Assembly (NCBI GenBank): GCA_014360495.1 | Contig: JACIXR010000004.1 | Location: forward strand, 67,983 to 131,982 | Reading direction: 5' to 3' | Origin: a bacterium | GTDB lineage: Bacteria > Armatimonadota > JACIXR01 | Length of the DNA stretch: 64,000 nucleotides | Part shown: positions 19,279 through 36,374 of the stretch, piece after piece | How the letters are laid out: each line of letters opens with the position of its first letter | How positions within the stretch are numbered: position 1 is the stretch's first letter | Position numbers and translations under genes: made by a program | The notes under the pieces: generated by a model | What the model saw: only the letters and a program-made list of their open reading frames with translations | Told to the model about the DNA's origin: nothing | Databases searched by the model: none

Positions 19279-20535
19279 CTAAGCGAACTTCTCCGCTTCT
19301 TCCTTGGCTATCCTCACCGTTTCCCTTAGCCTCTCCGGCTGGTTTCTGCAGGTATGGATGTCCTTGAAGATTATCTCAACGACGCAATCTCTTGTTTTCT
19401 CCAGCGCATCCCTCACCATTTTCCTCACAAATTCACCATCAAATTGTTCAGCAGCGAAGATGGGAGCGGGATTGGGCTTCCAGGAGAAAATTGCCCTTTT
19501 GCCCAATCTTTCCGCTCCCTCAGCGACATCAACCCAGGGGCTCATGGATAGTCTGCGGAGATGAGGGATATGTTTTAAGATTATCTCAACCTTCTTGTGT
19601 AGCGGTTCACAGCAGCCGTAAGAGGCTAAGCCGAATCTTGAGAGGAACTTGCCCTCATATTGGAGGGCGAATTCCTCATGCATAGCGGGGGAAACACAGG
19701 CGAATATCTGGGTTGTGGCATGACCCCAAAGGTCCTTCGTCCTTACATGAACGCCATCAAAATCGGGTTGAGGAAGCTCGTCCGTGAACCCCAAACCTCC
19801 TGAGCCACAGTAATGTGCCCCATTATTCAAGCTCAAAACATTTTCCCGTTCATAGAAATCAAGCATCTCCAGCCAAGCGTCAGTCAAAAAGCTGAGCGCG
19901 CGATGGAGCCATTGAGGACGTTCAATCATATCAATGAATAATTGGTCAAATCCCCGCCAGGTGGCGAAGTCGTCTATGATGGCAAACCAGAAATGAGCTG
20001 GACCCCTTTTCTCAACTTTTAGAATATCTCCCACTAAATCGCAAAGTTTCTCGTAATGCTCCTCCGTAGCTTTCCAATCTATCCACAGCCTTGGCTTCTG
20101 CAATTTCTCCAAATCCTTCTCCTCTCTTATCACCGGCTCATATTTCACGGCTCCGTAAGGGTCATCAGGAGAGGTCGTTTGGGGAGCAATTCCAAATCCT
20201 GTGTTATGAATGTAGATTGGCGAGGCAATGGTATCGGTTATAACGCTGTCATCCTGGATGAATTCAGCGTAGTAAAGCCTCATTCTTAGGTCATATTCAA
20301 CCCCTCGGCAAAATGGGTCGGAGCAGGAAAGGCTTTCCCAGGGGAGGACTTCTCGCCAGGAGCCTTCAGGGAAAATGAGGACAAGCGGTCTTATCCTCTT
20401 GAGGGAGTTGTGCTGCTTCCATATCCTCGCCATTTCCTCTTGGCGAGGTTGATGGGCATATTCAGCTACCCTCTTCGCTAAATCCCTTATTAAGGTTATG
20501 TCCCTTTCGGGGAATTTTCCTAAATTCTCTCCCAT
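19279..20535 (-). CDS. Hypothetical protein, possibly a URO-D/MtaA-like TIM-barrel fold, encoded in a carbohydrate-utilisation cluster
   Basis: It is a 418-aa protein without a signal peptide. It is convergent with trpA and co-directional with the downstream sugar isomerase genes. No confident family motif was found; the URO-D-like call is a weak impression only. Confidence 0.3.
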   Translation of the reverse strand: MGENLGKFPERDITLIRDLAKRVAEYAHQPRQEEMARIWKQHNSLKRIRPLVLIFPEGSWREVLPWESLSCSDPFCRGVEYDLRMRLYYAEFIQDDSVITDTIASPIYIHNTGFGIAPQTTSPDDPYGAVKYEPVIREEKDLEKLQKPRLWIDWKATEEHYEKLCDLVGDILKVEKRGPAHFWFAIIDDFATWRGFDQLFIDMIERPQWLHRALSFLTDAWLEMLDFYERENVLSLNNGAHYCGSGGLGFTDELPQPDFDGVHVRTKDLWGHATTQIFACVSPAMHEEFALQYEGKFLSRFGLASYGCCEPLHKKVEIILKHIPHLRRLSMSPWVDVAEGAERLGKRAIFSWKPNPAPIFAAEQFDGEFVRKMVRDALEKTRDCVVEIIFKDIHTCRNQPERLRETVRIAKEEAEKFA

Positions 20536-22010
20536 ATAGGAGGGATGCGCTCCTTTCCCGCTGGTCCTAAGACGATTGGTTTAATTCCCGCTATCTCGCA
20601 GAGGTAGGTTAGAGCACGCACTTTATCTCCGAGAACGGCTAATATGTGGTTGCAGGGGAAAACGCTGACGAATTCCTCAAAGGAGCAATTCAGGCGAGCG
20701 TGGACATGAGGCCAGGTGGGATTAGTTTGTTCGTTGAGGGCTTTCCTTTCCTCCTCGGGAAGCTCAAGGCTCTCGCCGGGGACAATAACCATATAGGGCT
20801 TGTCGTCCCAGAGCCCAAGCCTGGCGAAGGTTAACTTGCAAGGAGCGGCGTCAAAGGATACGGAGGCTCCTCCCGCTTTGAAGTAATATTCAAGGGCGGG
20901 ATAGAATGTTACCTTCTTGAAGTTATCCTCGGGATTGAAGCTCAAGGAGGCGTAGAAACTGGCGTGATTTCCCGAGTTGCAGAAATCCCAAAGGTCCCTA
21001 TCGGGATGATAGAGGCGAACATCCATAAAGAGAACCGGCAATCCGCCGCTTATGTATTTCAGAAGTTGCATAGTCATCGCAGCGTAGGAATCGGCTTCTG
21101 TGGCGCAAACAGTGGGCTCTTTAGGACCGTTCCAATCATAGGGGTCGTTCATAAGCATCTCGGGAACATCTCCGAGGCAAACGTATTCCGTCAACTCCCT
21201 TTGCCCCTTCAACCCGCAGAAATCAAAACCCTTTTCCTCGTTGACCATTCGCATAGCTATGTAGAGGCGAATCTGCGTCCTGAGAGTCTCGGGCGTAAGC
21301 ATCTTCCCATCGTATTTTATCCTGTCGCCCAGAAGGTCGGTAAACCACTTAAATCCCTTCTCCACTTCCGCATCGCTGACCTCTTCCATTCTCTTTACCA
21401 AGAGAAGTTGGTCAATCTGTCTAACTGTCGTTCCGAATGTCTTGATTGTGGGGACGAGATGGAAGTAGCCGGTTTCCATACCCATTGAATGTCCGCCATA
21501 GCAACCGTAGACCTCGTTTTGGATTGTGGTGTAGGCTAGGCTTGCTCGGCACCAATCTATTACCTTATTTTGCGTTTCCTCGTCATCTATCTCGCCGATT
21601 ATCCTATGAGTTCTTATTCCTGCTTGGCGAAGAGCCCCATCAGTTGCGAGCAATCCCACATTGCCGGGGAATTGTCCGTTGTTATTGGAGAGGCTTAAAA
21701 CGGGCACCTTGCCGAGGCTGTTGAGGAATGGCCATGCAAGGAAGGGAAAATCCCAGACATTGTAGAGCATTATCACCTGCTTGCAGTTAGCCCTTGCCAG
21801 TTCTTCTCCCATTTCCTGGGCAACTCTCACGCTCGTTATTATCTTTGACGCCACGATGACCTCAGGTGTCGTCCCATCAACATTTCTCAGCTTTGCCCTA
21901 ATCAGCTTCGCCCATTCCTGGCAAACCCTCATATTTTCCGGGTTGTTTGCCCGCCACACATGCTCCCTTTCATCGTTGAGCATAACGATGCCGATGTTTG
22001 TGCTTTTCAT
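20520..22010 (-). CDS. L-fucose/L-arabinose isomerase family protein (FucI-like, short form)
   Basis: It is 496 aa. The N-terminal Rossmann-like region begins IGIVMLND. The C-terminal region (FMDVRLYHPDRDLWDFCNSGNHASFYA) resembles FucI_C-like isomerases. Confidence 0.45.
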   Translation of the reverse strand: MKSTNIGIVMLNDEREHVWRANNPENMRVCQEWAKLIRAKLRNVDGTTPEVIVASKIITSVRVAQEMGEELARANCKQVIMLYNVWDFPFLAWPFLNSLGKVPVLSLSNNNGQFPGNVGLLATDGALRQAGIRTHRIIGEIDDEETQNKVIDWCRASLAYTTIQNEVYGCYGGHSMGMETGYFHLVPTIKTFGTTVRQIDQLLLVKRMEEVSDAEVEKGFKWFTDLLGDRIKYDGKMLTPETLRTQIRLYIAMRMVNEEKGFDFCGLKGQRELTEYVCLGDVPEMLMNDPYDWNGPKEPTVCATEADSYAAMTMQLLKYISGGLPVLFMDVRLYHPDRDLWDFCNSGNHASFYASLSFNPEDNFKKVTFYPALEYYFKAGGASVSFDAAPCKLTFARLGLWDDKPYMVIVPGESLELPEEERKALNEQTNPTWPHVHARLNCSFEEFVSVFPCNHILAVLGDKVRALTYLCEIAGIKPIVLGPAGKERIPPIWERI

Positions 22011-22028: not shown

Positions 22029-22856
22029 TTATCCCTGAATTATAGCTTCCAAAGCCTTTGCGGTCTCAAAAATCAGAAGTTCGGGATGGAATTTATAGGC
22101 GGGAAGCTCGGCAGTGATAAAGCCTTGATAATTAATCTCCTTCAGCGCCTTGCTTACCTCTGGCCAGTTCACGTCTCCCTCCAGAAGATTTACGAATCCA
22201 TGGATGTTTCCCGCGGAGAGGCGGAAGTCCTTGACATGGACCGCCTTTATCCTTTGCCCCAATATCCTTATCCATTGCTCGGGAAAGCCGAAATTGAGGA
22301 CATTGCCGACATCAAAGTAAGCTCCAACCCACTCGCTTTGGAAGGAATCTATGAAATCCCTCATCTCTAAGGGCGACATAAACATCTTGTTCCAAACATT
22401 TTCCACCCCGATAAAGACCTTGTTCTTCTCCGCCTCGCCTATGAGTTGTTTGATGCCTTCCCTTGCCCTTTCTATCGCAACATCGTAGGGCTCCTCGGGT
22501 GATACAGTGCCCGGCACCAAGAGGAGGACATCCGCTCCAAGCCAACGATTGATGCGGAGGCAAATCTTTGTCTGCTCTATGGATTTCTCCCTTATTGCGC
22601 GGTCGGGAGAGGTCAATCTTACCTGCCAATGAAAGCCGGGGAGGGTTGTTCCCAGCGTAATTCCCGCCTTCTCAGCTTCCTTCCTGAACTCCTTCGCCTC
22701 CTCCTCGCTTATGGAAAGGGGAAGAGTGTAAGGAGGATTTGCCTGCTCTCCGATTATCACCTCTACTCCATCCAAGCCCGCCTCTTTAGCCAGCTGGAAG
22801 AGTTCCTTTGTTGAGAGGTTTGGTGGGAAAGCCCAGACATTGATGCTCTTTTTCAT
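22029..22856 (-). CDS. Sugar-phosphate isomerase/epimerase (xylose-isomerase-like TIM barrel, AP endonuclease 2 family)
   Basis: GLDGVEV, the pattern YFDVGNV, HVKDF and ELPAYKFHPE are typical of this TIM-barrel family. Confidence 0.75.
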   Translation of the reverse strand: MKKSINVWAFPPNLSTKELFQLAKEAGLDGVEVIIGEQANPPYTLPLSISEEEAKEFRKEAEKAGITLGTTLPGFHWQVRLTSPDRAIREKSIEQTKICLRINRWLGADVLLLVPGTVSPEEPYDVAIERAREGIKQLIGEAEKNKVFIGVENVWNKMFMSPLEMRDFIDSFQSEWVGAYFDVGNVLNFGFPEQWIRILGQRIKAVHVKDFRLSAGNIHGFVNLLEGDVNWPEVSKALKEINYQGFITAELPAYKFHPELLIFETAKALEAIIQG

Positions 22857-22871
22857 TTTGTTTTCCTCCTT

Positions 22872-23495
22872 TCAAAAATTTTTCTTTATAAAAGGCAAAA
22901 TGCCTTTGCCCTCCAAAGCCATTTTCCCTCCCCAAAGCCCCACTATAGCTCCACCTATTACATCTATGGTATGATGCGCTCCCGACTGCACCCTCGCAAT
23001 CGCCACCCCGGTTGCCAATAGATAATAGATGAGTTTGTTCTCTGGATGATAGCGGGAGAGGACGGAGGCAATGGCAAATGAGGTAGAGGTATGCCCTGAG
23101 GGAAATGAATCGTAGGATTCTCCATTTGGTCTTTTGCTATGGGTTAGATATTTCAAGCCTAAGGTAACAGTGCCCGTTGTCAAAAGAGCGTTTAAGCAAT
23201 CGTCTCCAATTTTCTCCTTCACATTTATACAAGAAGGACTAACGAGTAAAGAAATCGCTGCTAATGATTTTGTTTGAAAATTCGTTTTTTCTGAAAGAAG
23301 GGCAATGGCACCAAGAGTCTTAGTCTGCAAGTTCGCATCTTCAAATAAATCCTCGGAGTGTATCAAAAGGAGCGAAAGACCTGCTTGAGTGGCTCCCTCG
23401 CCAAGGCAGTTGAGGTTATGGAGCAACTTCTGGGAGGTCTCCCAGGGCAGAGCGAGGGGTACAAGGAAGAAAAGTAAAATTAGAAACTTCGTCAT
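22872..23495 (-). CDS. PAP2-superfamily (type 2 phosphatidic-acid/acid phosphatase) membrane/secreted phosphatase
   Basis: It has a signal peptide and the PAP2 motifs KYLTHSKRPNG, SFPSGHTSTSFA and SGAHHTIDVIGGAIVG. Confidence 0.7.
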   Translation of the reverse strand: MTKFLILLFFLVPLALPWETSQKLLHNLNCLGEGATQAGLSLLLIHSEDLFEDANLQTKTLGAIALLSEKTNFQTKSLAAISLLVSPSCINVKEKIGDDCLNALLTTGTVTLGLKYLTHSKRPNGESYDSFPSGHTSTSFAIASVLSRYHPENKLIYYLLATGVAIARVQSGAHHTIDVIGGAIVGLWGGKMALEGKGILPFIKKNF

Positions 23496-26400
23496 CCTCT
23501 TATAAGCACTTCAACCTTACCCAACAGTCCGGAGGGCTTGGGTTCTCCCACGATGAGATTTTGCATTGTATTGGCGACCTCTATCTCCAACAAGTTCTCT
23601 CCTTCCTTCACGAAATTCGTGATATCCACTTCAAAGGGTTCCCATAGGCGAACATCCACGAGCTCGCCATTGACCTTTATCCCAGCAAGTTCTCCAACCT
23701 TCTCCATCCTAACGACGACATTCTTCCCCGCAATCTTTCCAATATGTATCTTTTGAGAATATATGGCTATGCCGGAGTAGAAGGGATATCCGAAAGTAGT
23801 CCAGCATTCGCCAATCCGTGCCTCTCCGGGTTCCTTGGCGATAACCCATTCTTCGTCTTTCCTTCTCAGGGCGAAATCGCCGATGAGGATTGGTGGGTGT
23901 GCTAAATTAACCGGTTCATATAAGCCAGCTGCGCATCTTATCTCAACTTCGTTTATGCCCTGCTTTAATAGGGAGGAAACATCAGCTGAAAACATAAACC
24001 TATCAAGATAATCGTCGGGTTCCCAATTTTTCACTTGCTCACCGTTTATCAATACCTCTATGTGTTTCGTAGCGCTCTCGTTCCATACAGGTTCGTTTAT
24101 CCCTCCATCCATAATCAACTTTGCCTTCTCTGGAACGGCTTCAACCTCAAAGCTAGTCTTGTATATATGGAGGTAGGTATCGCTATCCCTGCCTGTGACC
24201 CTTGAGGACATCTCATATTTCCAGTTCCTCAAGGGAAGAGCGTTAGGTTTGGCAGTTTTGAATTGCCACTTTTCCTGCAGGAAAACGGGTTCCTCTTGGG
24301 AGAAAGTTTTCTTTTCCTTAGGCATAAGCTCCTCGGGAAGTTCTTCCTCAAGCGATATGAGCAAGGAATTGTTTGGAGGCAAGGTTATATCTAAAATGGT
24401 CTTACCTCTCTTCTCCTGCCATTTGAATGGGAAGGATTCCAGCTTTCCGGTCTCGGCGTTCCAAACGAGGGGAATCCCTCCCTCCGATAGCTCTGCCTGG
24501 AAGCTGACTGTTCTGTGTCTTGATGTATTGACAAAGAAGTAAAAGCTTTTCTCTCCCTTCATATAATGGAGGGAAACGATATCGCGTGCGGGTTTCTTAT
24601 CCTCAAGCACCAACATATCTGGTTCAATGATTTCGCTCAAAATGGAGAACAGCTCTTGTTCCAATTCCTCTTGTGGGAGGTCATGGGCGCCTCTTATGAA
24701 TATAGCCTCGCCTTTCTCGTGTTTCTTCCTGTAAATCTTCTTCTCCATTTTCTCCGGATTCAATTTCGCCTCTTCGGGCTCCACGCCGAAGAGGAAACAC
24801 AGCCTCTCCAATAGTTCCCTGTCTTCACCCGCCTCAAAGGATGTGTGGGGAAGCGAGCCCAGAGCGATGACCTTTCCATCCTCCGCTAGAAAATCCTCTA
24901 TCACTTCCACAGTTTCCCAGGATAACATCGTTAGGGTTGGGAGAACAAGAACTTTATATTCCTCAAGGACATCGGAGCATGTCTCGTCCATAACCCAGAT
25001 TTTACCCCTTTGGAATAGTGTCCTTTGTTGGAGAATTTCCTCAGAGATGTAATCAAAGTCGAATCCAATTCTCAGAAGCGCCTCGCTTGTCTTGTTGAAT
25101 CCAAGGATAATTTTCTCCGTTTCCCTTGTTGGTTGAGGAGTGATTGAAGCCCACATAGATTTGATGGGGTAAAGGACGGCTACATCGGCGATATGATTGC
25201 CGTGGGAGAAGATATAGCTGAGGCGAGCTACATAGTCCGCGAACTTCTTATAATATTTCCAGAAGGGAGCACGATAGAACTCATCAGGTGGGCATTCCCA
25301 TTTTCTGAATCCCTGAATGGAGTAATAAAACGCGTGGGGCATAACCAAATTAACTCCCAAGGCTATTAGCCAGTCCGTAAGCCATTTCAAGGTATTTAAG
25401 GATATTCCCCATTGGGAAGCCAAACCGAATGCTTCGCACATAACTCTTGGCTTTTCCAAAAGATGGGCGGCGGAGGAGGCAAACTTAGGACCGACGAGAT
25501 TGTTTAAGCCCCAGGGAGTATCCGGTTGCGGCCAGGTGAGCTCGCAGAGGAGGTCAACTCCCCCGAAATGCATATATTGAGCACCGCGGAAGAAATCTCC
25601 CTGATGGCGTGTATGGTGATAGAGTTCACCCTCAGATAGGACATGCCCGATGAAATTAAGGTTCACCTTATCGCAGAACTCATAAATCTGCTTGAAGAAA
25701 GCGGAGACATATGCTTCCGTTGCCGTGTCTCGGAAGTGGGCGCGGACCATGGGAGTTAGAGGTCCAACATCTTCAAAGAGGGCTGGGAGGGCTTTATAGA
25801 GGGAATATCCAAATCTTCTCTCAAAGAGGGAAGGGAGGCTGGCTGTCCAGGGAATCGCCTCAGAGGGGTTGTAATCCATAGCGGGTTCATCGGTGAAGAT
25901 TCCCCAAACAGTGGAGCCGAATTCGTCCTTGAATCGTTTCGCATATTCCTTATGGGTTAGCTCTATGAACCTCTTTATTGCGTCCGGATTTAGAGTATCA
26001 ACAGCTGAGCCGAAAAAGAGACCAGAGGTGAGGTATCTGCGAGAGAAAACATAGACTCTAAAATCACTGGATTGGGGAGCTACCCATTCAAATACATCGT
26101 CCTTCACAAAATCGTTAAGGAGGATACCACCACTGTAAAAGTTCTTAATTTTACCATCCTCCAATGGGAAAGCAACAACCGCAATGAGTTCATCCATCTT
26201 GTTTATTTTCAGGGAAACTTTTTCTCCTGCCTTTATTTCCAACCTATGGGCTAAGTATAAACCTGACATTCGGTAGTAGGGATTTTCCGCGACAATCTTA
26301 CCATCGGCATTGGCGGAGGGCCAATTGTTCTCGTCGTAGAGATAAGCTTTCATATCCAATTTCTTGGCTGTCTCTATGCAGGTGCGGATTCTCTCAAACC

Positions 26401-26593
26401 ATTCTTCCGAAAGATAGGGTGTGAGGAGTCCATGGCGGGCGTGAAGGATGAACCCATCCACCCCTTTCTCGTGCATCTCTTTTATCTGTCTTATCAATTC
26501 CTCATCCCTTAAATCCCTATTTAAAAACCAGAAGGGAGCCAGGCGATACTCACTTGTGGGGTTCTGAAACTCCCTTTCCATATCTCCGTTCAT
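23492..26593 (-). CDS. Large (1033 aa) glycoside-hydrolase-like protein with C-terminal galactose-binding-like beta-sandwich domains (possibly GH106/GH2-related)
   Basis: The N-terminus (RLAPFWFLN...EELIRQIKEMHEKGVDGFILHARHGL...YLSEEWFERI) follows a pattern seen in TIM-barrel glycosidases. The C-terminus (VVVRMEKVGELAGIKVNGELVDV...LLEIEVANTMQN) resembles sugar-binding-domain-type jelly rolls. It has no signal peptide. Confidence 0.4.
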   Translation of the reverse strand: MNGDMEREFQNPTSEYRLAPFWFLNRDLRDEELIRQIKEMHEKGVDGFILHARHGLLTPYLSEEWFERIRTCIETAKKLDMKAYLYDENNWPSANADGKIVAENPYYRMSGLYLAHRLEIKAGEKVSLKINKMDELIAVVAFPLEDGKIKNFYSGGILLNDFVKDDVFEWVAPQSSDFRVYVFSRRYLTSGLFFGSAVDTLNPDAIKRFIELTHKEYAKRFKDEFGSTVWGIFTDEPAMDYNPSEAIPWTASLPSLFERRFGYSLYKALPALFEDVGPLTPMVRAHFRDTATEAYVSAFFKQIYEFCDKVNLNFIGHVLSEGELYHHTRHQGDFFRGAQYMHFGGVDLLCELTWPQPDTPWGLNNLVGPKFASSAAHLLEKPRVMCEAFGLASQWGISLNTLKWLTDWLIALGVNLVMPHAFYYSIQGFRKWECPPDEFYRAPFWKYYKKFADYVARLSYIFSHGNHIADVAVLYPIKSMWASITPQPTRETEKIILGFNKTSEALLRIGFDFDYISEEILQQRTLFQRGKIWVMDETCSDVLEEYKVLVLPTLTMLSWETVEVIEDFLAEDGKVIALGSLPHTSFEAGEDRELLERLCFLFGVEPEEAKLNPEKMEKKIYRKKHEKGEAIFIRGAHDLPQEELEQELFSILSEIIEPDMLVLEDKKPARDIVSLHYMKGEKSFYFFVNTSRHRTVSFQAELSEGGIPLVWNAETGKLESFPFKWQEKRGKTILDITLPPNNSLLISLEEELPEELMPKEKKTFSQEEPVFLQEKWQFKTAKPNALPLRNWKYEMSSRVTGRDSDTYLHIYKTSFEVEAVPEKAKLIMDGGINEPVWNESATKHIEVLINGEQVKNWEPDDYLDRFMFSADVSSLLKQGINEVEIRCAAGLYEPVNLAHPPILIGDFALRRKDEEWVIAKEPGEARIGECWTTFGYPFYSGIAIYSQKIHIGKIAGKNVVVRMEKVGELAGIKVNGELVDVRLWEPFEVDITNFVKEGENLLEIEVANTMQNLIVGEPKPSGLLGKVEVLIRG

Positions 26594-26906
26594 CTAAAAT
26601 CCCTCCTCTGCAAGGTTTTGTTTTTTAACTTATTGTAATTATACGCGAAATCAAGTCAAATAGAAAATCAATGTGTGATTCTCGGTTTTGTTGCAAGATT
26701 CATTGGCTAGCCTAATATACATACTGCCTAATTATGAAAAGTCTTTGACTTTTATATCTGTGCTTTAACTTTTTAGGTTTGCTAAGATTTTCCCAACCTA
26801 AGGCTTGGGAAATGAGATTGTCACGCATATTCCGAGCTCGCATCTAAAGCAGTCTTCCTCTTTGGTTGGTATAAAAAGAGGTGGTTCTCATTTTAGCAAG
26901 TCTAAC

Positions 26907-29024
26907 TTATATTGCTTTCATAAGAATAAGGGCGAGGAGTGTTGCTTCTTCAGGTGAGATATCTTCCCGCTCCAAAAAGAAGTTCGCTACAACTCTTTCC
27001 TCCTCGCTCAATTTTCCTAAATCGGAGAATTTCGCCAATCTCTCCGCGAATTTCTTGTAATTTCCCTTCCCAAAATGGCGTAAGGCGAGCATTATTCCCC
27101 TTCTAATCCTTCTCTTTCCCTTACCAACTCTTCTCAATATGCTCTCCACACGCTGGTATAAGGTTAGGAGGTCTAAAGAAAGCAAGGGGTAGAGATTTAT
27201 TCCCATCAATTTTCCAATAGAATAAATCCATTGTCTTTTGAAAAGGGGAGACTTGAACTTTTCCCTGATGCTAAGAAGACTGCTCAATGCGGATTTTTCT
27301 CCCGATTTAGCCAGATAGTAAGAAATGTGTGCTAAAATTTCCTCATCTTCCTCTTCCTGCAAAAGTGAGGGCAGTTTTTCCGCGCCGAGGGTGTCTAATT
27401 CATAAGTTGCCTTAAGAGTTATTTCCCTTCTCCGTCCCAACTTCGCTAAAGCTTCCAAAACTTCGCTTGCGAACATCTTTTCGGTTTCTAAATATCTTTC
27501 TAGGGCTTCAATCGCCTTCTCATTGCCTATTTCTCCCAAAGCTATTATCGCTTCTCTTCTCACCTCGGGATTTGGGTCTTGAAGGAGGTTTATCAAATTA
27601 TCAATTGCGAGGGAAGAGTGTGGAATTGCCAAAGCTTTTATAGCCTTTATTTTTTCTTCTTCCTTTCCGCTTGCCAGCAAGCGGAGCGCCCTAAGGGTTC
27701 CTATAGGTTTTCTAGGCACAATGTCCCTTACAAGTTCTAAGGGAGATTCTTCCTCTCTGTATTCCCTTATTGTCCGAAGAAGTGAAAGCGAGAGTAGGCG
27801 CAGAACGGTGGAGAGAATGAAAAGAATTTTTATATTCGTTAAATCAAGGGCTAAAAAGGTGATGTGTAGTCCTTTTAAGGCGTTCACTATCAAGCCCCCA
27901 AGGAAAGGAGAGACAGCCCCCGTGAGGGAGACGAGGGCGGAATGAATACCGACATAGGACATCCTTTTAATAGGAGGGGAGAACATAAGGAGTAGGTTGA
28001 ACTGGGTTAGCATAATACCCGCCCAGAGAGCGCCGGCGAAGATATTCACCAGATAAAGAAGAATAAGCGAAAGGGTGGGAAAGCGTGGGGTCATAAAAAT
28101 GTAGAAAAAGGGGATAAGGGAAGCGAGGAGGCTTGTTAAAAGGAGGATGCTTTTATTTGAGTATCTATCGGCGAGGTAGCCGAAGAAAGGTTGAGCAAGG
28201 AGCCCTGCTATCCCTGAGGAGATAGATACCAAGACAATCGTTGTATAGGAGAGGTGGAGATATTTGAGCATAAAAACCGAGAAGAATTGCCCGGGCATAA
28301 TCACTGCGAAATTCCAAAGGGATATGAAAAAGGTATAAAATTTGAAGTTTTTATCCTTAAGCGGAAGGACGAGCTCATGGATAAGAGAAAGGTCTTTTTG
28401 AGGTTCTCTATAGGGTTCCGGTTGTAGAAATATTATGATTATCTCAACTATGGCGAATAAGGCAGCGGTTGCGAAGACGAGAGGGAAGGCTATCTTTTTA
28501 GGCAATACATCTACGAGCCTTCCCATAGATAAGGAAACGACCATCCCTGCCAATCCAGCATACATATTTCTGCGTGCGAAATATCGTCCCCTGATATCCT
28601 CGGGAACGATATCACCCAACCAGCTGACATAGGGTGGATTTGTGAGAGAAATAAATATATTAAAAAGGGTGTAAGAAGCGAAGAAAAGAAATAGGGAATA
28701 GGAGAGGGATTTGAAGAATGGAAGGAAGATGATGGGTATCCAAAATAGGATGGAGAAGATGTAGAATATGTTGGTGAAGAATTTTCTCGTTAGTCTTGAT
28801 TTCTCCGCCCAGAAAGAAGCAAGGGGTTGAACAACGCCCGCGAGGACTGGAATTGCTCCCAATAAACCTATTTCCAAGCTCTTTGCTCCCAAATAGAGAG
28901 CGAATCCCGTTATGAAGACACCAGTCCAAAGGTTGTAGGCGCAGGTGCCTATTATTGCTCCCCAATTGAACAGGCGAAGCGCCTTTGTCGTTTCTTGATG
29001 AGAAAGGGTTGTCTTAGCCCTCAC
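26907..29024 (-). CDS. MFS transporter (about 12 TM) fused to a C-terminal cytoplasmic domain of about 230 aa of HEAT / PBS-lyase-like repeats
   Basis: The N-terminal 470 aa are polytopic. The C-terminus has repeated units ([40 protein letters not shown] and [10 protein letters not shown]). Its start overlaps the kdsA stop by about 10 nt. Confidence 0.65.
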
Positions 29025-29835
29025 TTTCTTTGACTATACGGAATATCTTCACGGCTAATTCAAGAATTGGGAACAGGCTATTTAAGGGGAGCATTGTCGC
29101 TGAATCGGATAGAGCTTTTGTTGGCTCTGGGTGGGTTTCAAGGAATATAGCATCAACGCCAACAGCGCAGGCGGCTCTTAATAGATAGGGAGCCATTTCC
29201 CTATCTCCCCCAGAAACTCCCTTTCCCGCTCCGGGCATCTGCACGCTATGCGTTGCATCAAAAACAACAGGGTAGCCGAAACTTTTCATAATGACCAATG
29301 AACGGAAATCTACCACCAAGTTGTTATAGCCAAAAGAAGTTCCTCTCTCGCAGAGAAGGATGTTTTTATTGCCCGTGCTTTCAATCTTCTCAACAACATA
29401 ACGCATATCCCAGGGAGCGAGGAATTGCCCTTTCTTGACATTTATTGGCTTTCCTGTCCTGCCGGCTGATAACAAAAGGTCAGTCTGCCGGCATAGAAAT
29501 GCGGGAATCTGTAGAGCATCAACGATTCTGCCAACGATTGAGGCTTCAGCTGGGGAATGGACATCCGTTAGAACGGGGACTCCTACCTTTTCCCTTACCG
29601 TTTGGAGTATCTCCAATCCCTTCGCCAATCCGGGACCGCGAAATGAGCTTATTGATGTTCTGTTAGCCTTGTCATAGGAGGATTTGAAAACATATCCTAT
29701 TTTCAATTTTTCACATATCTCTTTTAATTTGAAGGCTACCTCAAGACAGAGCTCCTCGCTTTCAATAACACATGGCCCCGCTATCAGAACAAGTTTATCT
29801 CCACCTACAACGACATTTCCGATTTTCACTTGCAT
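29014..29835 (-). CDS. kdsA: 3-deoxy-8-phosphooctulonate (KDO-8-P) synthase
   Basis: It has IAGPCVIES and DVHSPAEA and is a 273-aa (beta/alpha)8 protein, typical of KdsA. Confidence 0.9.
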
Positions 29836-30557
29836 CCCAATAGTTTTCTCACCCTTTCCAAGTCCTCAGGAGTGTCAACGCCGACTGGGCTATAATCAAC
29901 GAGAACGATTTTTATCTTGAAGCCGTGTTCCAAAGCCCTCAATTGTTCCAATGACTCAGTCCTTTCCAAGGGAGTTTGGGGAAGAGAAACGAATTTGAGG
30001 AGAAAATCCTTTCTATAGCCATAGATTCCGATGTGTCTTAATGTGGGAGCGATGGGATTGCGATAAAAGGGGATTGGAGAGCGGGAAAAATAAAGAGCTA
30101 TCCCATTTCGGTCGGTAACTACTTTCACCACATTGCTATTACCCCTTTCCTCATTGTTTGCTAAGGTTGCAGCTGAGGTCATAGGGGTTACCTCATCGCT
30201 TTCCCTTAGCGCCTCAGCTACTTTATCAATGACCTCCGGCGGAATTAGGGGTTCGTCCCCTTGGATATTTATGACGAAATCGCAATCAATTTTTCTCGCA
30301 ACCTCAGCGCAGCGGTCTGTTCCAGAAGGATGAGAGGGAGAGGTCATAACAGCCTTGCCCCCGAATTTCTCAACAGCTTTCAAGATTCGTTCGTCGTCTG
30401 TAGCAACCAGGACATCCTCCAAGAGTTTAGATTTTTTTGCCTGTTCGTAAACGTATTGAATAAGAGGTTTCCCGCAGATGTTCGCTAAGGGTTTTCCAGG
30501 CAGGCGAGTTGCGGAATAGCGGGCGGGAATTATGCCTATGATTTTCATTTCTTGCAA
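29826..30557 (-). CDS. kdsB: 3-deoxy-manno-octulosonate cytidylyltransferase (CMP-KDO synthetase)
   Basis: It has [19 protein letters not shown] and NIQGDEPLI. Confidence 0.85.
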
Positions 30558-31036
30558 TACCTCTCCACTATAGTTTTTATTATATTGCTTGTGGACTTCC
30601 CTTCAACTCCCTTCGCTATCATAACCTGTCCTCCCAATGAACGAACCAATTTAGCCTCGGGAAGCTCATCGGGTGATTGATAATCTCCTCCCTTGATATG
30701 GACATCGGGCTTTATCAACTTGATAAGCTCATCGGGGACGGTTTCCTCAAAGATGACCACGAAGTCCACCATTTCCAAGGACGCTAATATCTCCGCCCTT
30801 TCCTCCTGCCCCATAATGGGTCTACTTTCTCCCTTTATTTTTCTCACCGATTCGTCGCTATTTAAACCAACAATGAGAATATCGCCTTTGCTTTTCGCTT
30901 CCCTTAAATAGCGGATATGACCTAAATGGATGATGTCAAAGCAACCGTTCGTGAAAACTATCCTCTTCCCTTCCGACCTCAATCTTCCTACTAAATCAGC
31001 GATTTTCTCCCTTTCAATTATCTTTTCCATCTTCAT
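30545..31036 (-). CDS. hldC: D-glycero-beta-D-manno-heptose-1-phosphate adenylyltransferase (RfaE domain II as a stand-alone protein)
   Basis: It is a cytidylyltransferase-like protein with VFTNGCFDIIHLGHIRYL and FVVIFEE, 163 aa long. Confidence 0.8.
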   Translation of the reverse strand: MKMEKIIEREKIADLVGRLRSEGKRIVFTNGCFDIIHLGHIRYLREAKSKGDILIVGLNSDESVRKIKGESRPIMGQEERAEILASLEMVDFVVIFEETVPDELIKLIKPDVHIKGGDYQSPDELPEAKLVRSLGGQVMIAKGVEGKSTSNIIKTIVERYCKK

Positions 31037-32040
31037 TCCTGTGGCAGTTGACCCACAAGCTCCAGCATTTCTCTTGGAGTGGGCTGAGCAGTGCCTAGTT
31101 TCCTCACAACAACTGCGGCAGCTATACTGGCAATTTCCATTGCCTCTCTGAGGGAAGTTCCCGCCTTCAAACTCAAAGCCAGAGAAGCCATAACAGTGTC
31201 GCCGGCTCCCGTTACATCGTGAACTTCCGTAGCCAGCGCGGGGATATGAATTTCTTCGTCCTCTTTATAGAGTCTCATTCCTCTCTCGCCCATTGTTATC
31301 AAGACCCCCTTTGCCTCCAATTGCCTAAGGAGCCTCATTCCCACCTCATCTATCGGGAGAGATTCCGTTGCATCGCCAACGGCGAAGCGGGCTTCCTTCT
31401 CGTTGGGACAGAGAAGAAAGGCGCCCTTGAAGAGGTTGATGTTTTGAGGCTTTGGGTCTACTATGAGGAGGCAATCGTGTGGCTCGCTTACTTCAACGAG
31501 GAGTTTGGCAACTTCCGGATGGAAGAAGCCCTTATTATAGTCAGATGCTATTATTATGCCTTTGTTTGTCGTTAATTTTTGGATTTTTTCCTTTGCTTTT
31601 GCTAAAATCTCGCCCTCAATTGGTTTCCTGCTTTCCCTATCTATCCTCACGACCTGCTGGGTGTGAGCGATAATCCTGTTCTTGCAAGTCGTGGGACGGG
31701 AAGGGTCTACTATGATTCCCTGAATATCAATATCTCTTTTCATTAATTCTTCTAAGAGGAATTTGCCGTATTCATCATCTCCGATAACTCCTAAAAGCTT
31801 ACATTTTCCACCCAATGCAGTGATATTTGCCGCCGTGTTAGCGGCGCCTCCGGGAACGAAGAAACGGTGTTCAATCTCCACAATGGGGACGGGTGCTTCC
31901 GGCGATATCCGGTTGACCCTTCCGATGTTGTATTCGTCAAGGATTAAATCGCCGAGGACGACGATTTCCAACTCCTTGAAGCTATTCAGTATTTCCTTAA
32001 GCCTTCTTTTCTTCATTTTCTGAGCCGAAATGCTGGTCAA
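31033..32040 (-). CDS. hldA: D-glycero-beta-D-manno-heptose-7-phosphate kinase (RfaE domain I, PfkB-family carbohydrate kinase)
   Basis: It has VLGDLILDEY, GGAANTAANI and DVTGAGDT (the PfkB signature). Confidence 0.8.
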   Translation of the reverse strand: MTSISAQKMKKRRLKEILNSFKELEIVVLGDLILDEYNIGRVNRISPEAPVPIVEIEHRFFVPGGAANTAANITALGGKCKLLGVIGDDEYGKFLLEELMKRDIDIQGIIVDPSRPTTCKNRIIAHTQQVVRIDRESRKPIEGEILAKAKEKIQKLTTNKGIIIASDYNKGFFHPEVAKLLVEVSEPHDCLLIVDPKPQNINLFKGAFLLCPNEKEARFAVGDATESLPIDEVGMRLLRQLEAKGVLITMGERGMRLYKEDEEIHIPALATEVHDVTGAGDTVMASLALSLKAGTSLREAMEIASIAAAVVVRKLGTAQPTPREMLELVGQLPQE

Positions 32041-32593
32041 TTGCCTCGCAGATTAGATGCCCAATCATAAGATGGAAGGTTTGGATTAGGGGGGTATTCT
32101 TTGAGGGAACGACGAAAGCCATATCGGCTTCCTTTGCTAAATCGCCTCCCTCGCCGCCGCTTAAAGCGATTGTGTAGGCACCCTTTCTCTTTCCCGTTTT
32201 CACTCCCTCAATCACGCTTTTTGACTTCCCGCTTGTTGAGATGCCGATAACGATATCCTTTTCGCTAGCTAATGCCTCTACTTGGCGGGCGAAGACGACA
32301 TCAAAAGAATAGTCGTTGGACAAAGCTGTAAGGATGGATGTGTTAGTTGTTAGGGCGAGGGCGGGAAGCGGTTTTCTTTCTCTCTTAAATCTGCCGATTA
32401 GCTCGGCGGCGATATGCTGGGCATCGGCGGCGGAGCCGCCACAGCCGAAAAGCAGAACCTTGCCTCCATCTTCAAGAGCTTTGATGATTTTAGCACAGCA
32501 TATGCCTATTTTCTCCCTCTCTTTCTTCAGCCAAGAGAGAAGGGAATCCAGTTCTTTTATATACTCCTCTAAGAACCCTTCAACATTCATCAT
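31997..32593 (-). CDS. gmhA: Phosphoheptose isomerase (SIS domain)
   Basis: It has LLFGCGGSAADAQHIAAELIGRF and IGISTSGKS. Confidence 0.85.
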   Translation of the reverse strand: MMNVEGFLEEYIKELDSLLSWLKKEREKIGICCAKIIKALEDGGKVLLFGCGGSAADAQHIAAELIGRFKRERKPLPALALTTNTSILTALSNDYSFDVVFARQVEALASEKDIVIGISTSGKSKSVIEGVKTGKRKGAYTIALSGGEGGDLAKEADMAFVVPSKNTPLIQTFHLMIGHLICEAIDQHFGSENEEKKA

Positions 32594-32651
32594 ATATTTA
32601 GATTTTATTCATTTTTGCCAGATATTCAATTGGATTATAGAATAATTTTGT

Positions 32652-33686
32652 ATGAAACCAAAAGGAGTAGAGAGAATCCAAAGGTCTCCTTACTATTTTC
32701 TTGAAAAACTTGGGATTTTAGACGCACTTATAGCTCGCAAAATAGTAGAGGGAAGATTGCCTTTATATATACTATCTTACCATCGTTTTTCACCGAGAAA
32801 AAGGATAATCAGGTCTACCCCGCCCTGCATCGATATCAACTCTTTCCGAGAGCAAATAGAATTTTTATGCAGAAATTTTGAAGTCATTCCCCTTTCAATT
32901 ATTGCGCATTGTATCCATAAAAGGGAGCCTTTCCCCAAGAATTCCGTAGCGATAACGATTGATGATGGATACAAAGACAATTATCTCTTAGCTTATCCTA
33001 TTTTAAAGGAAAATAAAGTTCCAGCGACTATTTTTCTCACTACCTCATATATAGATGGGAAGCAAACGCCTTGGGAAGCAAAGGTTTCCTTTGCAATTTC
33101 CCATACCAGCATAAAGGAATTGTCATTGGAAGGGATAGGGAGATTCAATCTACGAGGAGAAAAAAGGAGATATATTGCGAGGGAAATGATAATAAAAAGG
33201 TTAAAGAAGGTATCCGAAAAGAGGAAGAAAGTTCTTATAGAAAAGCTGATAAAAAGATGCGATGTAGAGATTCCTCCCTGTTTAGGAAAAGAATTGATGT
33301 TATCTTGGAATGAGATAAGAGAAATGAACGGGGAGGGGATAGAATTCGGCGCCCATACGGTTCATCACCCTGAATTGACGAACATCCCTCTAACGGAGGC
33401 GAAATGGGAGATAGAAGAGTCAAAAAGGGAGCTTGAGGAAGGATTAGGGAAGCAAGTTTTCGCATTTGCCTATCCGAGCGGTATTTACAATAAGGGAATA
33501 GTCCGATTGGTAAAAAATGCTGGATTTCTCTGTGCGGTTACCACCAGTTTAAGAGAGGTTAAGCCTTGGTCCAATCCTTACGAATTGGGGAGGGCAATAG
33601 GGATAGATGAGGACTTCAGCAAGTTCAAGGCTATAGTTTCCGGAATTTATGAAAGGATAAATACCTGTTGGGGCTTATTGAGATAA
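32652..33686 (+). CDS. Polysaccharide deacetylase (CE4, NodB-homology domain)
   Basis: It has AITIDDGYKDNY, ATIFLTTSYIDG, GAHTVHHPEL and AFAYPSG. Confidence 0.75.
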   Translation: MKPKGVERIQRSPYYFLEKLGILDALIARKIVEGRLPLYILSYHRFSPRKRIIRSTPPCIDINSFREQIEFLCRNFEVIPLSIIAHCIHKREPFPKNSVAITIDDGYKDNYLLAYPILKENKVPATIFLTTSYIDGKQTPWEAKVSFAISHTSIKELSLEGIGRFNLRGEKRRYIAREMIIKRLKKVSEKRKKVLIEKLIKRCDVEIPPCLGKELMLSWNEIREMNGEGIEFGAHTVHHPELTNIPLTEAKWEIEESKRELEEGLGKQVFAFAYPSGIYNKGIVRLVKNAGFLCAVTTSLREVKPWSNPYELGRAIGIDEDFSKFKAIVSGIYERINTCWGLLR

Positions 33687-34877
33687 CAAGCCGAAGAGGA
33701 TATCTTTAACAAGCTTTCCCACGCGTTCTCTAGAGAATTGGAGAGCTATTTCCCGACACAATCCCCTTGTTTCGGGTGGCAATCTCACAGCCTGCTGAAG
33801 GGCAGAAGCCAGTGATTCTACATCTCCCTCTTCTACGATAAATCCTTGGACTCCAGGTTGAATGAATTCGCTTGTTCCGATAGCGGATGATACGACGATA
33901 GGGATACCACAGGAGAGAGCTTCAAGGGAAACAAGAGGTATCCCCTCATAAAGAGATGGGAGGACAAATGTGTCCGCTGCATTGTAATATATTGGCAAGT
34001 TACTATGGGGAATTTTTCCTAAAAAAATCACATCTTTTTCTAAATCGAGCCCTTCAACCAAAGTCCGGAGTTTCTTTTCAAGGGTTCCCTTTCCGATTAG
34101 AAGGAGAAGACTATTGGGATTTTGCTGCTTGAAAATTTTGAAGGCATGAATGAGGATATTGGGTGCCTTTAGGGGGTCTAATCCGCCGACGAAGAGGAAG
34201 ATGAAATGGTCATCAGGAAGGTTCAAAATTTTCCTCGCTTCTAACCTATCTTTAGGAACGAAAGTATCGGTATCCAATAAAAGGGGGACAAATAACGCCT
34301 TCTCACCTAGCAAGGGTTCCTTTTCCTTAAGATAGGAGAGTTGTGATTTGTCAGCGCTTATTAGAATTTTTTTCAAATAGGGCGAGTATCTCTTGATAAG
34401 GAAAATATGTAAAAGCCCCTGGATGTAATTGGCAAACCAATTGGGGATATATCTTCTCAGTTTCCAAAGCCTGGGATATCTAAGGGCAAGCATTTCTTTG
34501 AAGCATCCATGGATATGGAGAATCGCCGGCTTTCTAAGATTAGTAAGGGGGAGAAAATCAATCTCTTGGAGATAAATGATATCGGGATTCGTCTTTTCAA
34601 TTTCCTTCCAAGCTTTTCGCAATGTGACGAAGGTATCAAAAGGTCTCCCTATAAATGGTCTATTAAGATAAGGGTCTAAGAAGGAAAATGTTGTTCCCTC
34701 TATCTTCTTTTCTCGCCAGAATTTTCTTTTATTTTCCTTATCGTCCTTGCCCAGTAAATAAACATCCATAAATCTTGATAGGTATAGGGCTATATCCCTT
34801 GAAAAATGCAAAGCACCCTTTGCGGGTTCTCCCACAAAATCTCCTCTCATTGCCATAAGAAGCCGTGGTTTATTCAT
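33675..34877 (-). CDS. Glycosyltransferase family 4
   Basis: It has FLFVGGLDPLKAPNILIHAF and EGIPLVSLEALSCGIPIVVS (the E-x7-E motif). Confidence 0.75.
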   Translation of the reverse strand: MNKPRLLMAMRGDFVGEPAKGALHFSRDIALYLSRFMDVYLLGKDDKENKRKFWREKKIEGTTFSFLDPYLNRPFIGRPFDTFVTLRKAWKEIEKTNPDIIYLQEIDFLPLTNLRKPAILHIHGCFKEMLALRYPRLWKLRRYIPNWFANYIQGLLHIFLIKRYSPYLKKILISADKSQLSYLKEKEPLLGEKALFVPLLLDTDTFVPKDRLEARKILNLPDDHFIFLFVGGLDPLKAPNILIHAFKIFKQQNPNSLLLLIGKGTLEKKLRTLVEGLDLEKDVIFLGKIPHSNLPIYYNAADTFVLPSLYEGIPLVSLEALSCGIPIVVSSAIGTSEFIQPGVQGFIVEEGDVESLASALQQAVRLPPETRGLCREIALQFSRERVGKLVKDILFGLLSQ

Positions 34878-35886
34878 TTTCCATCACCATCAATTTTTCA
34901 ATTTCTTCGCCTATTTCCTTGGCGTTTAGTGTCTTGAGGCATATTGGTTTCCTGCATTTCTTTTTACTCCAGCAAGGAGAACAAGAAATTGGTTTATAAA
35001 GCACACGAACCTTTGCGCCAAGCGGAGAAGTTCTTTTAGGGTCGGTTGCGGTATAGATGCCCAAAGTCGGCACTCCCAAACAAGCAGCTATGTGAGTGAG
35101 TCCACTATCCTGACCAACGAAAACAGAGCAAAATTTGAGCAGAGCTATGGATTCTCGTAGGGAAAGGTGTCCAGCTAAGTTATGAATTTTTTCCTGTTCT
35201 AAGGTCCTACCAAGCTCCTCAAATTCTGTTCCTCCGAATAAAAAAACATTCCCCTTTGCTTTGAGCATATTAAGAAGTTCGTTTAAGGTAGGTAGGTGCC
35301 ATCTCTTAAATGTGGTGCTCCCTCCGAGAAGGATACCAAAGATTGGCTCGTTAGCTTCTTTTGTAAGTGCATCAGCCAATTCCCTTGCCCTATTAGTTTC
35401 TTCTTCCGATAGAAAAATCTCGGGGATTAAGGTTGATTTTCTCCCTCCAGCTGCAATCGCCAGCTTGACATAATCTAAGACGCAATGGTCTTCAGGGTTT
35501 TCCTTTATCGTAAAATTATAGAAAAGAAAGGTTGCAGGATTGAAGAAACCAAAGCGCCTTTTGCATCCACTCAGAAAAGAAAGGAGAGCTAATTCCACGG
35601 ATTTTGAGGAAAAAGATAAGCACATATCATAATTTCTCGTCTTTATTTGTTTTAACAATTCTCTTTTCTCTTCCACTCTTTTCGGGCGAACGAATATCGA
35701 ATCTATCCAAGGATTTTTCTTCAATACCTCTGCGCCGTTGGCTCCTAGCACGACATCTATAGGAGTGGTTTGGTAGCCCTCCTTCAGGGTCTTTATAGCG
35801 GGAAGAGTGAAGATGACGTCCCCGATGAAATTCTGGTTTAATACTAAAATCCTTTTCATGCCAATTTTCTTTTCCAAAGCCGCCAA
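34870..35886 (-). CDS. ADP-heptose:LPS heptosyltransferase (GT9)
   Basis: It has MKRILVLNQNFIGDVIFTLPAIKTLK, GSTTFKRW and VGQDSGLTHIAACLGVPTLGIY. Confidence 0.8.
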   Translation of the reverse strand: MAALEKKIGMKRILVLNQNFIGDVIFTLPAIKTLKEGYQTTPIDVVLGANGAEVLKKNPWIDSIFVRPKRVEEKRELLKQIKTRNYDMCLSFSSKSVELALLSFLSGCKRRFGFFNPATFLFYNFTIKENPEDHCVLDYVKLAIAAGGRKSTLIPEIFLSEEETNRARELADALTKEANEPIFGILLGGSTTFKRWHLPTLNELLNMLKAKGNVFLFGGTEFEELGRTLEQEKIHNLAGHLSLRESIALLKFCSVFVGQDSGLTHIAACLGVPTLGIYTATDPKRTSPLGAKVRVLYKPISCSPCWSKKKCRKPICLKTLNAKEIGEEIEKLMVMENE

Positions 35887-36374
35887 TATAAGTCTTCAAT
35901 CTTGGAAGGTAAAATAGCAGCTAAAAACGATTCCCACGCACCTGCTAGTAGGAGATAAATGCGAGCAAAGGGGAATCCAACTCGTTGAAGGGCGAGCTTT
36001 AGAGGTTCCTTCGACGAATGAGTTAAATATTGTGGAGGTGCATTCCGCCTGGCGCCACTTGGAGTTATATGAGTGGAGATGATGTGAGGCTGTCTTTCTT
36101 TGAACAATTTAATCAAAGAGAGGAAAATAGTGATAATTGTTCCTGCCTCTATGAGAGTTATCATTGAGTTTTTAGGATAGGGGAATCCTCCCATTTTCTC
36201 TTCTTCGATTTTCGTCCTTATCCTTCTTAAAATCGCAAGTTCACGCTCCCATTCAGGAGACATGTTTTCAATTATCGCCTTTAAACTTCTTTCCATACCA
36301 CCATTAAACCAATGGGCAGCAATGAAAAGAACTTTCTTTTTGCTAAATTGAGAGTTTGAGCCTGGCCCCATCAA
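35856..36374 (-). pseudogene. 172-aa ORF corresponding only to a GT4 N-terminal domain (no catalytic C-domain); probable truncated glycosyltransferase
   Basis: KVLFIAAHWFNGGMERSL...HIISTHITPSG resembles Glyco_trans_4-like_N. The ORF ends inside the start of the next heptosyltransferase gene, and the EX7E-containing half is missing. Confidence 0.35.

Follow-up and report, generated by a model that had tools for sequence, protein, structure and literature searches.

The MFS-HEAT gene and its reading frame

The window analysed here, a stretch of 64,000 nucleotides of contig JACIXR010000004.1 from a bacterium of the phylum Armatimonadota, contains a gene (26907..29024) whose product unites a transporter of the major facilitator superfamily (MFS) with a C-terminal domain of HEAT repeats. 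The gene joins a large, conserved and functionally unstudied MFS-HEAT family that is already present in public databases; what sets it apart is that it consistently closes an operon for 3-deoxy-D-manno-octulosonate (KDO) and heptose precursors of the lipopolysaccharide (LPS) core, in one deep lineage found in oil-field metagenomes.

The open reading frame (ORF) of 705 codons that had been proposed from the sequence (the original prediction) is borne out, and lies on the minus strand (Table 1). Its GTG start codon at 29024, which lies within kdsA, 11 nucleotides from where the stop codon of that gene ends, and is preceded by a purine-rich stretch, is credible because homologues in the window's family use TTG or GTG as start codon at the corresponding site (MKVKRALSHQE, MRDRRTLTYQE, MRAKRQLTYLE); no methionine codon occurs before residue 161 of the protein.

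An artefactual fusion, in which a frameshift arising in sequencing or assembly joined two genes, has practically no probability. Positions 26800-29900 are covered, with no differences and no gaps, by contigs of four runs from four studies (some of them possibly the source of the window DNA), and the exact protein is recorded on seven contigs. Three genomes of the same genus and one of a sister genus, whose proteins are 51-68% identical to that of the window over residues 1-704, each have a single stop-free frame of 715-729 amino acids, and a single open frame of at least 700 amino acids was found in 29 more genomes of the phylum. MFS_1 and HEAT_2 domains occur together in 40 of the 40 homologues of the main alignment (A1). 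The artefact is refuted by these identical contigs, intact frames and two-domain homologues: the MFS-HEAT ORF is a genuine single gene encoding one chain, as originally predicted.

Gene order and probable coupling to the KDO and heptose genes

The MFS-HEAT gene is the last in a row of six genes on the same strand (Table 1), each of which overlaps the next by 4-44 nucleotides. Its start overlaps the stop of kdsA, as had been noted before, by 11 nucleotides; the gene order previously given as kdsA-kdsB is corrected to kdsB-kdsA-MFS. The three genes upstream overlap one another and kdsB by 44, 4 and 13 nucleotides. Judged by their domains and context, the SIS_2 isomerase, PfkB kinase and cytidylyltransferase-like genes are probably the ADP-heptose pathway genes gmhA and hldE, the latter split in two; the presumed heptose kinase (PfkB) and adenylyltransferase (cytidylyltransferase-like) functions (30545-32040, minus strand) are encoded by two genes that overlap by 4 nucleotides instead of by one bifunctional hldE. 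Because overlaps run along the whole row, co-expression and translational coupling of the MFS-HEAT gene with kdsA and the heptose precursor genes are very likely, in agreement with the co-expression with KDO genes proposed originally.

A promoter-like site immediately precedes the row of six genes, but counts as weak evidence: the promoter consensus scan found 11 sites against 9.0 +/- 3.1 expected in shuffled sequences, no better than chance. On the minus strand between the stop codon of the MFS-HEAT gene (26907) and the next gene (26593), a terminator scan found no terminator-like site; this gap of 313 nucleotides is followed by a GH106-like gene with a promoter-like site of its own. The genome also encodes LpxC and a Kdo transferase, and together with the KDO/heptose row and the glycosyltransferase (GT) genes described below they identify the locus as part of the LPS-core region of an LPS-making bacterium.

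Table 1. Features of the MFS-HEAT locus (nucleotide positions in the window; residue numbers are those of the MFS-HEAT protein)
Feature	Position	Strand	Evidence or remark
MFS-HEAT fusion gene	26907..29024	minus	705 amino acids, GTG start, TAA stop; ORF list and translation
MFS domain (residues 1-425)	27750..29024	minus	12 transmembrane helices, small beta-hairpin (388-395) before transmembrane helix 12; DSSP of model
C-terminal all-helical domain (residues 426-705)	26910..27749	minus	domain model
Canonical HEAT/PBS-lyase-type repeats (residues 449-526)	27447..27680	minus	Pfam and phmmer against PDB
Pfam MFS_1 (PF07690)	residues 34-338		129.1 bits, cut-off 33.4, E 2.4e-37
Pfam HEAT_2 (PF13646)	residues 449-526		60.5 bits, cut-off 27.7, E 1.9e-16
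Pfam HEAT (PF02985)	residues 474-500		25.8 bits, cut-off 23.5
Pfam HEAT_PBS (PF03130)	residues 488-513		22.6 bits, cut-off 20.9
kdsA (KDO-8-P synthase, 3-deoxy-8-phosphooctulonate synthase)	29014..29835	minus	NF003543 410 bits (cut-off 242), TIGR01362 394 bits
kdsB (CMP-KDO synthetase)	29826..30557	minus	TIGR00466 248 bits (cut-off 155), NF003952 325 bits
Cytidylyltransferase-like gene	30545-31036	minus	Pfam
PfkB kinase gene	31033-32040	minus	Pfam
SIS_2 isomerase gene	31997-32593	minus	Pfam
Promoter-like site TTGAAT-16-TAAAAT	32602..32629	minus	immediately before the SIS_2 isomerase gene; weak evidence

Further upstream, an LPS-core-type cluster (33675-38471, minus strand) consists of a GT4 gene, a GT9 gene (heptosyltransferase family), an ORF of 172 amino acids with no assigned family (35856-36374), a second GT9 gene and a second GT4 gene; between this cluster and the gmhA row lies a polysaccharide deacetylase gene (32652-33686, plus strand). 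The operon is followed (22029-26593, minus strand) by genes for a GH106-like glycoside hydrolase of 1033 amino acids, a PAP2 phosphatase and a xylose-isomerase-like TIM-barrel protein. The GH106 gene adjoins the operon in three of the four relatives of the window's family, once on the opposite side and strand. Beyond these, an ORF of 418 amino acids (19279-20535, minus strand), to which no Pfam family could be assigned at E<=1e-6, runs into the end of an L-fucose-isomerase-like gene (20520-22010). DNA nearly identical to positions 26800-30600 is found in sequencing runs of several studies on metagenomes labelled as oil field, oil production facility or crude oil, and a smaller share of it (0.27 of sampled words) in a landfill metagenome run; no RNA run was among those listed.

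Domain architecture and predicted structure

As originally predicted, an MFS N-terminal half and a C-terminal half of HEAT/PBS-lyase repeats lie in one chain, Pfam MFS_1 and HEAT_2 both matching within the same ORF. MFS_2 and MFS_1_like are weak additional matches, and HEAT_EZ also matches in the repeat region. The full-length AlphaFold2 model, built with alignment A1 (mean pLDDT 87.4, pTM 0.78), has 12 transmembrane (TM) helices followed by a helical tail in one model, consistent with the single-chain fusion; according to DSSP there are 12 long helices within residues 9-418, and helices only at 428-704. Because there are 12 TM helices and basic residues are concentrated in the even-numbered loops, both termini are predicted to be cytoplasmic, which would place the alpha-solenoid in the cytoplasm. 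Co-folding of the MFS half (1-425) with the HEAT half (426-705), run without controls, gave a score of 0.02 against a mark of 0.32, which speaks neither for nor against docking of the two halves.

The C-terminal domain comprises about 280 amino acids (426-705) rather than the 230 or so estimated at first. The prediction that it is built of repeats stands insofar as HEAT repeats are detected, and fails for much of its length: there are only about three canonical units (about 455-533) and one degenerate unit (about 559-586), and the final 120 or so amino acids are not repeats. This last part is helical and specific to the family; it contains an invariant Y612 and the conserved block SP..RRQ...G.L.G....Y.LL. 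Forms of 780-870 amino acids in other orders have about three more HEAT units than the window form.

Modelled alone (alignment A3), the domain has a pLDDT of 92.3 and a pTM of 0.88. VIA-align matched the domain model to designed alphaRep proteins (Z 11.4, 11.1 and 10.9), deoxyhypusine hydroxylase (9.4), CpcE/F lyase (9.2), MpeQ (8.7) and YibA (8.5), nearly all of these alignments covering only model residues ~7-117 and hardly any of the last ~160. An alpha-solenoid of paired antiparallel helices is supported over the former, and the latter are helical. The alphaRep match at Z 11.4 and the CpcE/F match extend over model residues ~12-117. The alphaRep proteins were also matched by phmmer against the PDB (E 1e-29 to 1e-12). 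Scores against the models for phycobiliprotein lyases and NblB are far below their cut-offs (NblB, NF045915, 20.9 against 300; CpcF, NF058515, 16.4 against 220; CpeY, NF058505, 14.5 against 600), and the domain therefore has the common repeat without belonging to the lyase enzyme family.

Conservation and subfamily of the MFS half

The MFS half has a 12-TM MFS fold according to Foldseek, with target-normalised TM-scores of 0.64-0.78, E-values of 2e-8 to 1e-6 and identities of 13-18% to solved MFS transporters. The matches include YegT (8zoj, 2e-8), VMAT1/2, AmpG, SPNS2, NorA, NupG, MelB and MFSD2A at about equal scores (those after YegT with E-values up to about 5e-7), and no MFS subfamily stands out; phmmer of the window protein against PDB sequences found no MFS chain at E<=0.01. 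Among the 40 homologues of alignment A1, secondary Pfam matches are to MFS_1_like (26), MFS_2 (22), LacY (10) and Sugar_tr (4), more rarely to PUCC (2) and Nuc_H_symport (1), which hints at no more than a slight resemblance to carriers of the sugar type. The NCBIfam scan of the window protein returned nine weak families at E<=0.01, those for transporters being mixed models with scores far below cut-off. The "AmpG/LplT-like" label of the original prediction is not upheld. Neither protein is among these nine families, although no LplT model was searched by name or accession; a search of the complete genome with the AmpG model TIGR00901 was negative even at E<=10 (as a control, the model matched in 7 of 14 reference genomes).

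Residues that are invariant or nearly so in the 40 sequences include G40, P130, W135, D138, P141, R145-F149, D172, G282, D286 and Q341-L344. The D138...P141...R145-G-R-Y-F block (D...PxxxRGRYF) at the TM4-5 turn is invariant or nearly so, and in a motif-A-like segment of ten residues (282-291) in the TM8-9 loop G282 is invariant and L284 and D286 are kept in at least 90% of sequences. MFS motif A is G-x-L-x-D-R-x-x-x-K in a cytoplasmic loop; G282-x-L-x-D286 and D138...RGRYF resemble motif A and charge-relay positions. The conserved loop motifs suggest a working alternating-access transporter.

An alternative is that the protein is a membrane-anchored scaffold or sensor, of which the MFS half would only anchor the chain or sense a ligand (a "transceptor") and the HEAT solenoid would recruit cytoplasmic partners. 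The conservation of the C-terminal domain together with its non-repeat tail, including Y612 and the SP..RRQ block, speaks for such a role, as does the fact that no conserved mid-membrane acidic residue was noticed in the MFS-HEAT family. The MFS half, however, is conserved no less than the tail (column means of 0.43-0.65 over residues 1-425 vs 0.35-0.51 over residues 526-705) and retains loop motifs typical of working MFS transporters. Relatives that have an MFS half without a HEAT domain, which make up 43 of the 158 proteins examined (see below), make better sense if the MFS half is active in its own right. A scaffold or sensor is thus improbable.

Distribution of the MFS-HEAT family

The architecture had been called unusual, which does not hold: the fusion occurs in 34 of the 81 phylum genomes sampled and in large clusters from several phyla. 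A phmmer search of 1.84 billion cluster representatives found 642 proteins at E<=1e-30; 158 proteins were examined (148 of the best 150 representatives and 10 from another search). With hidden Markov models built from alignment A1, which replaced a strict regular expression for HEAT units that had matched only 10 of 110 proteins, 112 of these were found to have both domains, 43 the MFS half only and 3 the solenoid only; the family-specific tail is reached in 99 of the 112. Of the 81 phylum genomes, which were sampled evenly, 44 gave a match at E<=1e-25; it lies in an open frame of at least 700 amino acids in 34 of them and only in frames of 474-545 amino acids in the other 10.

Related loci, found with a narrower alignment (A2), span the Chthonomonadales, Fimbriimonadales, Capsulimonadaceae and Armatimonadales within the Armatimonadota. 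Clusters of MFS_1 plus HEAT_2 proteins in the ESM Atlas have 472 members (mostly Armatimonadota), 286 (Spirochaetota) and 100 (Chloroflexota), and named members also occur in metagenome-assembled genomes (MAGs) labelled Bacillota, Hydrogenedentota and Sumerlaeia. In their sources the members are named only "MFS transporter", "MFS family permease" or "HEAT repeat protein", and a literature search, with subscription-only papers outside its scope, found no paper on MFS_1-HEAT fusions. In one phylum genome, two MFS-HEAT genes lie in tandem (G045:C116:3021-7040), their open frames being 817 and 799 amino acids long.

In a FastTree phylogeny of the MFS domain (150 rows, 107 fused and 43 unfused), both fused and unfused forms are clustered; there are seven label changes, of which at least five are forced by well-supported branches, in a midpoint-rooted tree with several long branches from which the direction of change is not readable. 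The clade of the window has a long, fully supported stem.

Lineage specificity of the kdsA link and upstream partners elsewhere

The row gmhA-hldE-kdsB-kdsA-MFS is conserved in all four relatives of the window's family (five of five genomes when the window is counted), with a kdsA/MFS-HEAT overlap of 11 nucleotides in the window and three relatives and of 4 nucleotides in the fourth. The kdsA-MFS synteny is thus kept within the family, and is absent outside it. Neither kdsA nor kdsB was found within ~8 kb of the MFS-HEAT gene at 14 loci from other families of the phylum (at one of which a kdsA/DAHP-synthase-like gene of 32% identity lies at a distance of 3 kb), nor within up to 5 kb at 77 further loci from species-representative genomes, the three positive loci in that scan being the same family genomes again. 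The placement beside kdsA is lineage-specific and confined to one family, and is therefore weak evidence for an envelope substrate.

Other upstream partners were counted at 53 loci outside the family that have the full ORF and at least 900 nucleotides of upstream DNA, after clustering of the neighbouring ORFs. The same-strand gene immediately upstream encodes a lipobox-bearing protein of ~230 amino acids, for which no Pfam or NCBIfam family was found, at 18 loci (mostly Fimbriimonadales, with a 4-nucleotide overlap), and RodA at 8 (Chthonomonadales; TIGR02210 353.5 and 373.8 bits, cut-off 336.7). A xylose-isomerase-like TIM-barrel gene precedes the MFS-HEAT gene by 80-520 nucleotides at 6 loci (Capsulimonadaceae and others), and something else is found at the remaining 21. 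Among the first 14 non-family loci no recurrent partner was seen.

The lipoprotein gene lies directly upstream at L054:4282-4995 (plus strand), L061, L083, L092 and 14 more loci, the row at L054 being HIT/lipoprotein/MFS-HEAT. Atlas clusters of this lipoprotein are labelled Armatimonadota only. The window's genome has a 31%-identical homologue of it elsewhere, in a HIT/ZIP/lipoprotein/NfeD row (G000:C14:147816-148394; L111:1489-2103, minus strand). The rodA gene lies directly upstream at L099:3774-4955 (plus strand) and at seven more Chthonomonadales loci; downstream of the MFS-HEAT gene, L099 and L048 share a gene of ~310 amino acids with no assigned family and a shikimate-dehydrogenase-like gene, and L099 alone has an aldo/keto reductase gene as well. 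L099 belongs to a MAG assigned to Chthonomonas calidirosea.

These neighbours bear on a second alternative, that the protein transports or recycles an envelope precursor, its MFS half moving or flipping a lysolipid, a muropeptide, a KDO- or heptose-related sugar or a lipid-linked intermediate while the HEAT half docks enzymes of envelope biosynthesis. In its favour, the gene is directly downstream of an envelope gene, on the same strand, in three separate orders (kdsA, rodA and the overlapping lipoprotein gene, in the numbers given above); the neighbourhood in the window is an LPS-core cluster with two GT9 genes of the heptosyltransferase family and two GT4 genes; and the lipid transporters SPNS2 and MFSD2A, as well as AmpG, are among the top Foldseek matches. 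However, 27 of the 53 loci do not fit (the 21 with other upstream genes and the 6 with sugar-isomerase-like ones), nor do the first 14 non-family loci with their lack of a recurrent partner. The results with TIGR00901 and the NCBIfam scan are also contrary to this alternative, and AmpG, SPNS2 and MFSD2A score no better in Foldseek than nucleoside, amine, drug and sugar transporters. The presence of the fusion in MAGs labelled Bacillota, Hydrogenedentota and Sumerlaeia makes a strictly LPS-specific role unlikely. Moreover, gene order in the phylum is described in PMC4959169 as unusually non-operonic, and the label "envelope-related" for the three partners is partly post hoc. On balance an envelope-precursor transporter or recycler is doubtful.

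Proposed function

The interpretation that we favour, with moderate confidence, is that the protein is a secondary transporter for a small solute, with a cytoplasmic HEAT solenoid that binds a protein partner or regulates the carrier, and that it is produced together with LPS-core sugar precursors in one lineage. The MFS half would carry out alternating-access transport of the solute, and the HEAT half would be a protein-binding or regulatory module, as proposed for the NTT-HEAT transporters discussed below. In the window's family, the gene has become the last and very likely translationally coupled gene of a gmhA/split hldE/kdsB/kdsA operon, so that the MFS-HEAT protein would be made together with the LPS-core sugar precursors. 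The operon placement is lineage-specific and alone does not define the substrate.

Several points weigh against the idea of a small-solute transporter with a regulatory or docking tail. The secondary Pfam matches and the Foldseek ranking fail to discriminate MFS subfamilies, and no conserved mid-membrane acidic residue was identified that would point to proton coupling. A docking or regulatory role of the HEAT domain is reasonable by analogy, and analogy is its only basis. The kdsA, rodA and lipoprotein partners are all envelope-related, and operon position may be more informative than is assumed here. The MFS-HEAT family might be a cell-envelope factor, best seen in Armatimonadota: its membrane transporter would move or recycle an intermediate of the envelope, and its cytoplasmic HEAT solenoid would keep the RodA machinery or enzymes for envelope precursors tied to that transporter. 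This has a slim chance of being correct; if true, it would explain the kdsA coupling, the rodA adjacency and the lipoprotein coupling in three orders.

Taken alone, the finding is an ordinary annotation refinement of a well-conserved gene that is labelled only "MFS transporter". HEAT-tailed secondary transporters (NTT-HEAT and MFS-HEAT) number hundreds to thousands across several phyla, none with a known function, and should the HEAT tail turn out to serve for docking or gating, this would represent a new way to couple membrane transport to cytoplasmic partners in bacteria. The window offers a concrete handle on this question, a gene locked into a KDO/heptose operon in one deep lineage.

Comparison with known transporters and HEAT-repeat proteins

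AmpG and LplT are, like the MFS half of the window protein, MFS transporters, and theirs are substrates derived from the envelope; AmpG (8zgz) ranks third among the Foldseek matches of the MFS half (E 8.7e-8, 16% identity), as one of many equally scored folds. The solved MFS_1 transporters, namely the nucleoside:H+ symporters YegT and NupG, VMAT1/2, NorA, SPNS2, MFSD2A, MelB and AmpG, have no HEAT-repeat tail, unlike the window protein. With the HEAT proteins of PBS-lyase type (CpcE/F, MpeQ, NblB and E. coli YibA) and with alphaRep, the window protein shares the type of repeat over residues ~432-542.

The closest published analogue is NTT-HEAT, in which a TLC/nucleotide transporter domain is fused at its C-terminus to HEAT repeats (PF13646/PF02985), as described by Major et al. 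(2017, PMC5381601). The carrier of NTT-HEAT is TLC, whereas that of the window's family is MFS_1: PF03219 matched none of the 40 homologues at E<=0.01. A search of the 81 phylum genomes for TLC (PF03219) was negative but carries no information, control genomes being likewise without a match. Unlike in NTT-HEAT, no cyclic-nucleotide-binding domain follows the transporter half of the window protein. TLC-HEAT clusters lie near the window protein in the ESM Atlas (score 0.92), and in both plans a 12-TM secondary transporter is followed at the C-terminus by HEAT repeats belonging to shared Pfam families. NTT-HEAT (PMC5381601) and MFS-HEAT are also alike in being widely conserved in bacteria and functionally uncharacterised, with a HEAT part proposed to make protein-protein contacts.

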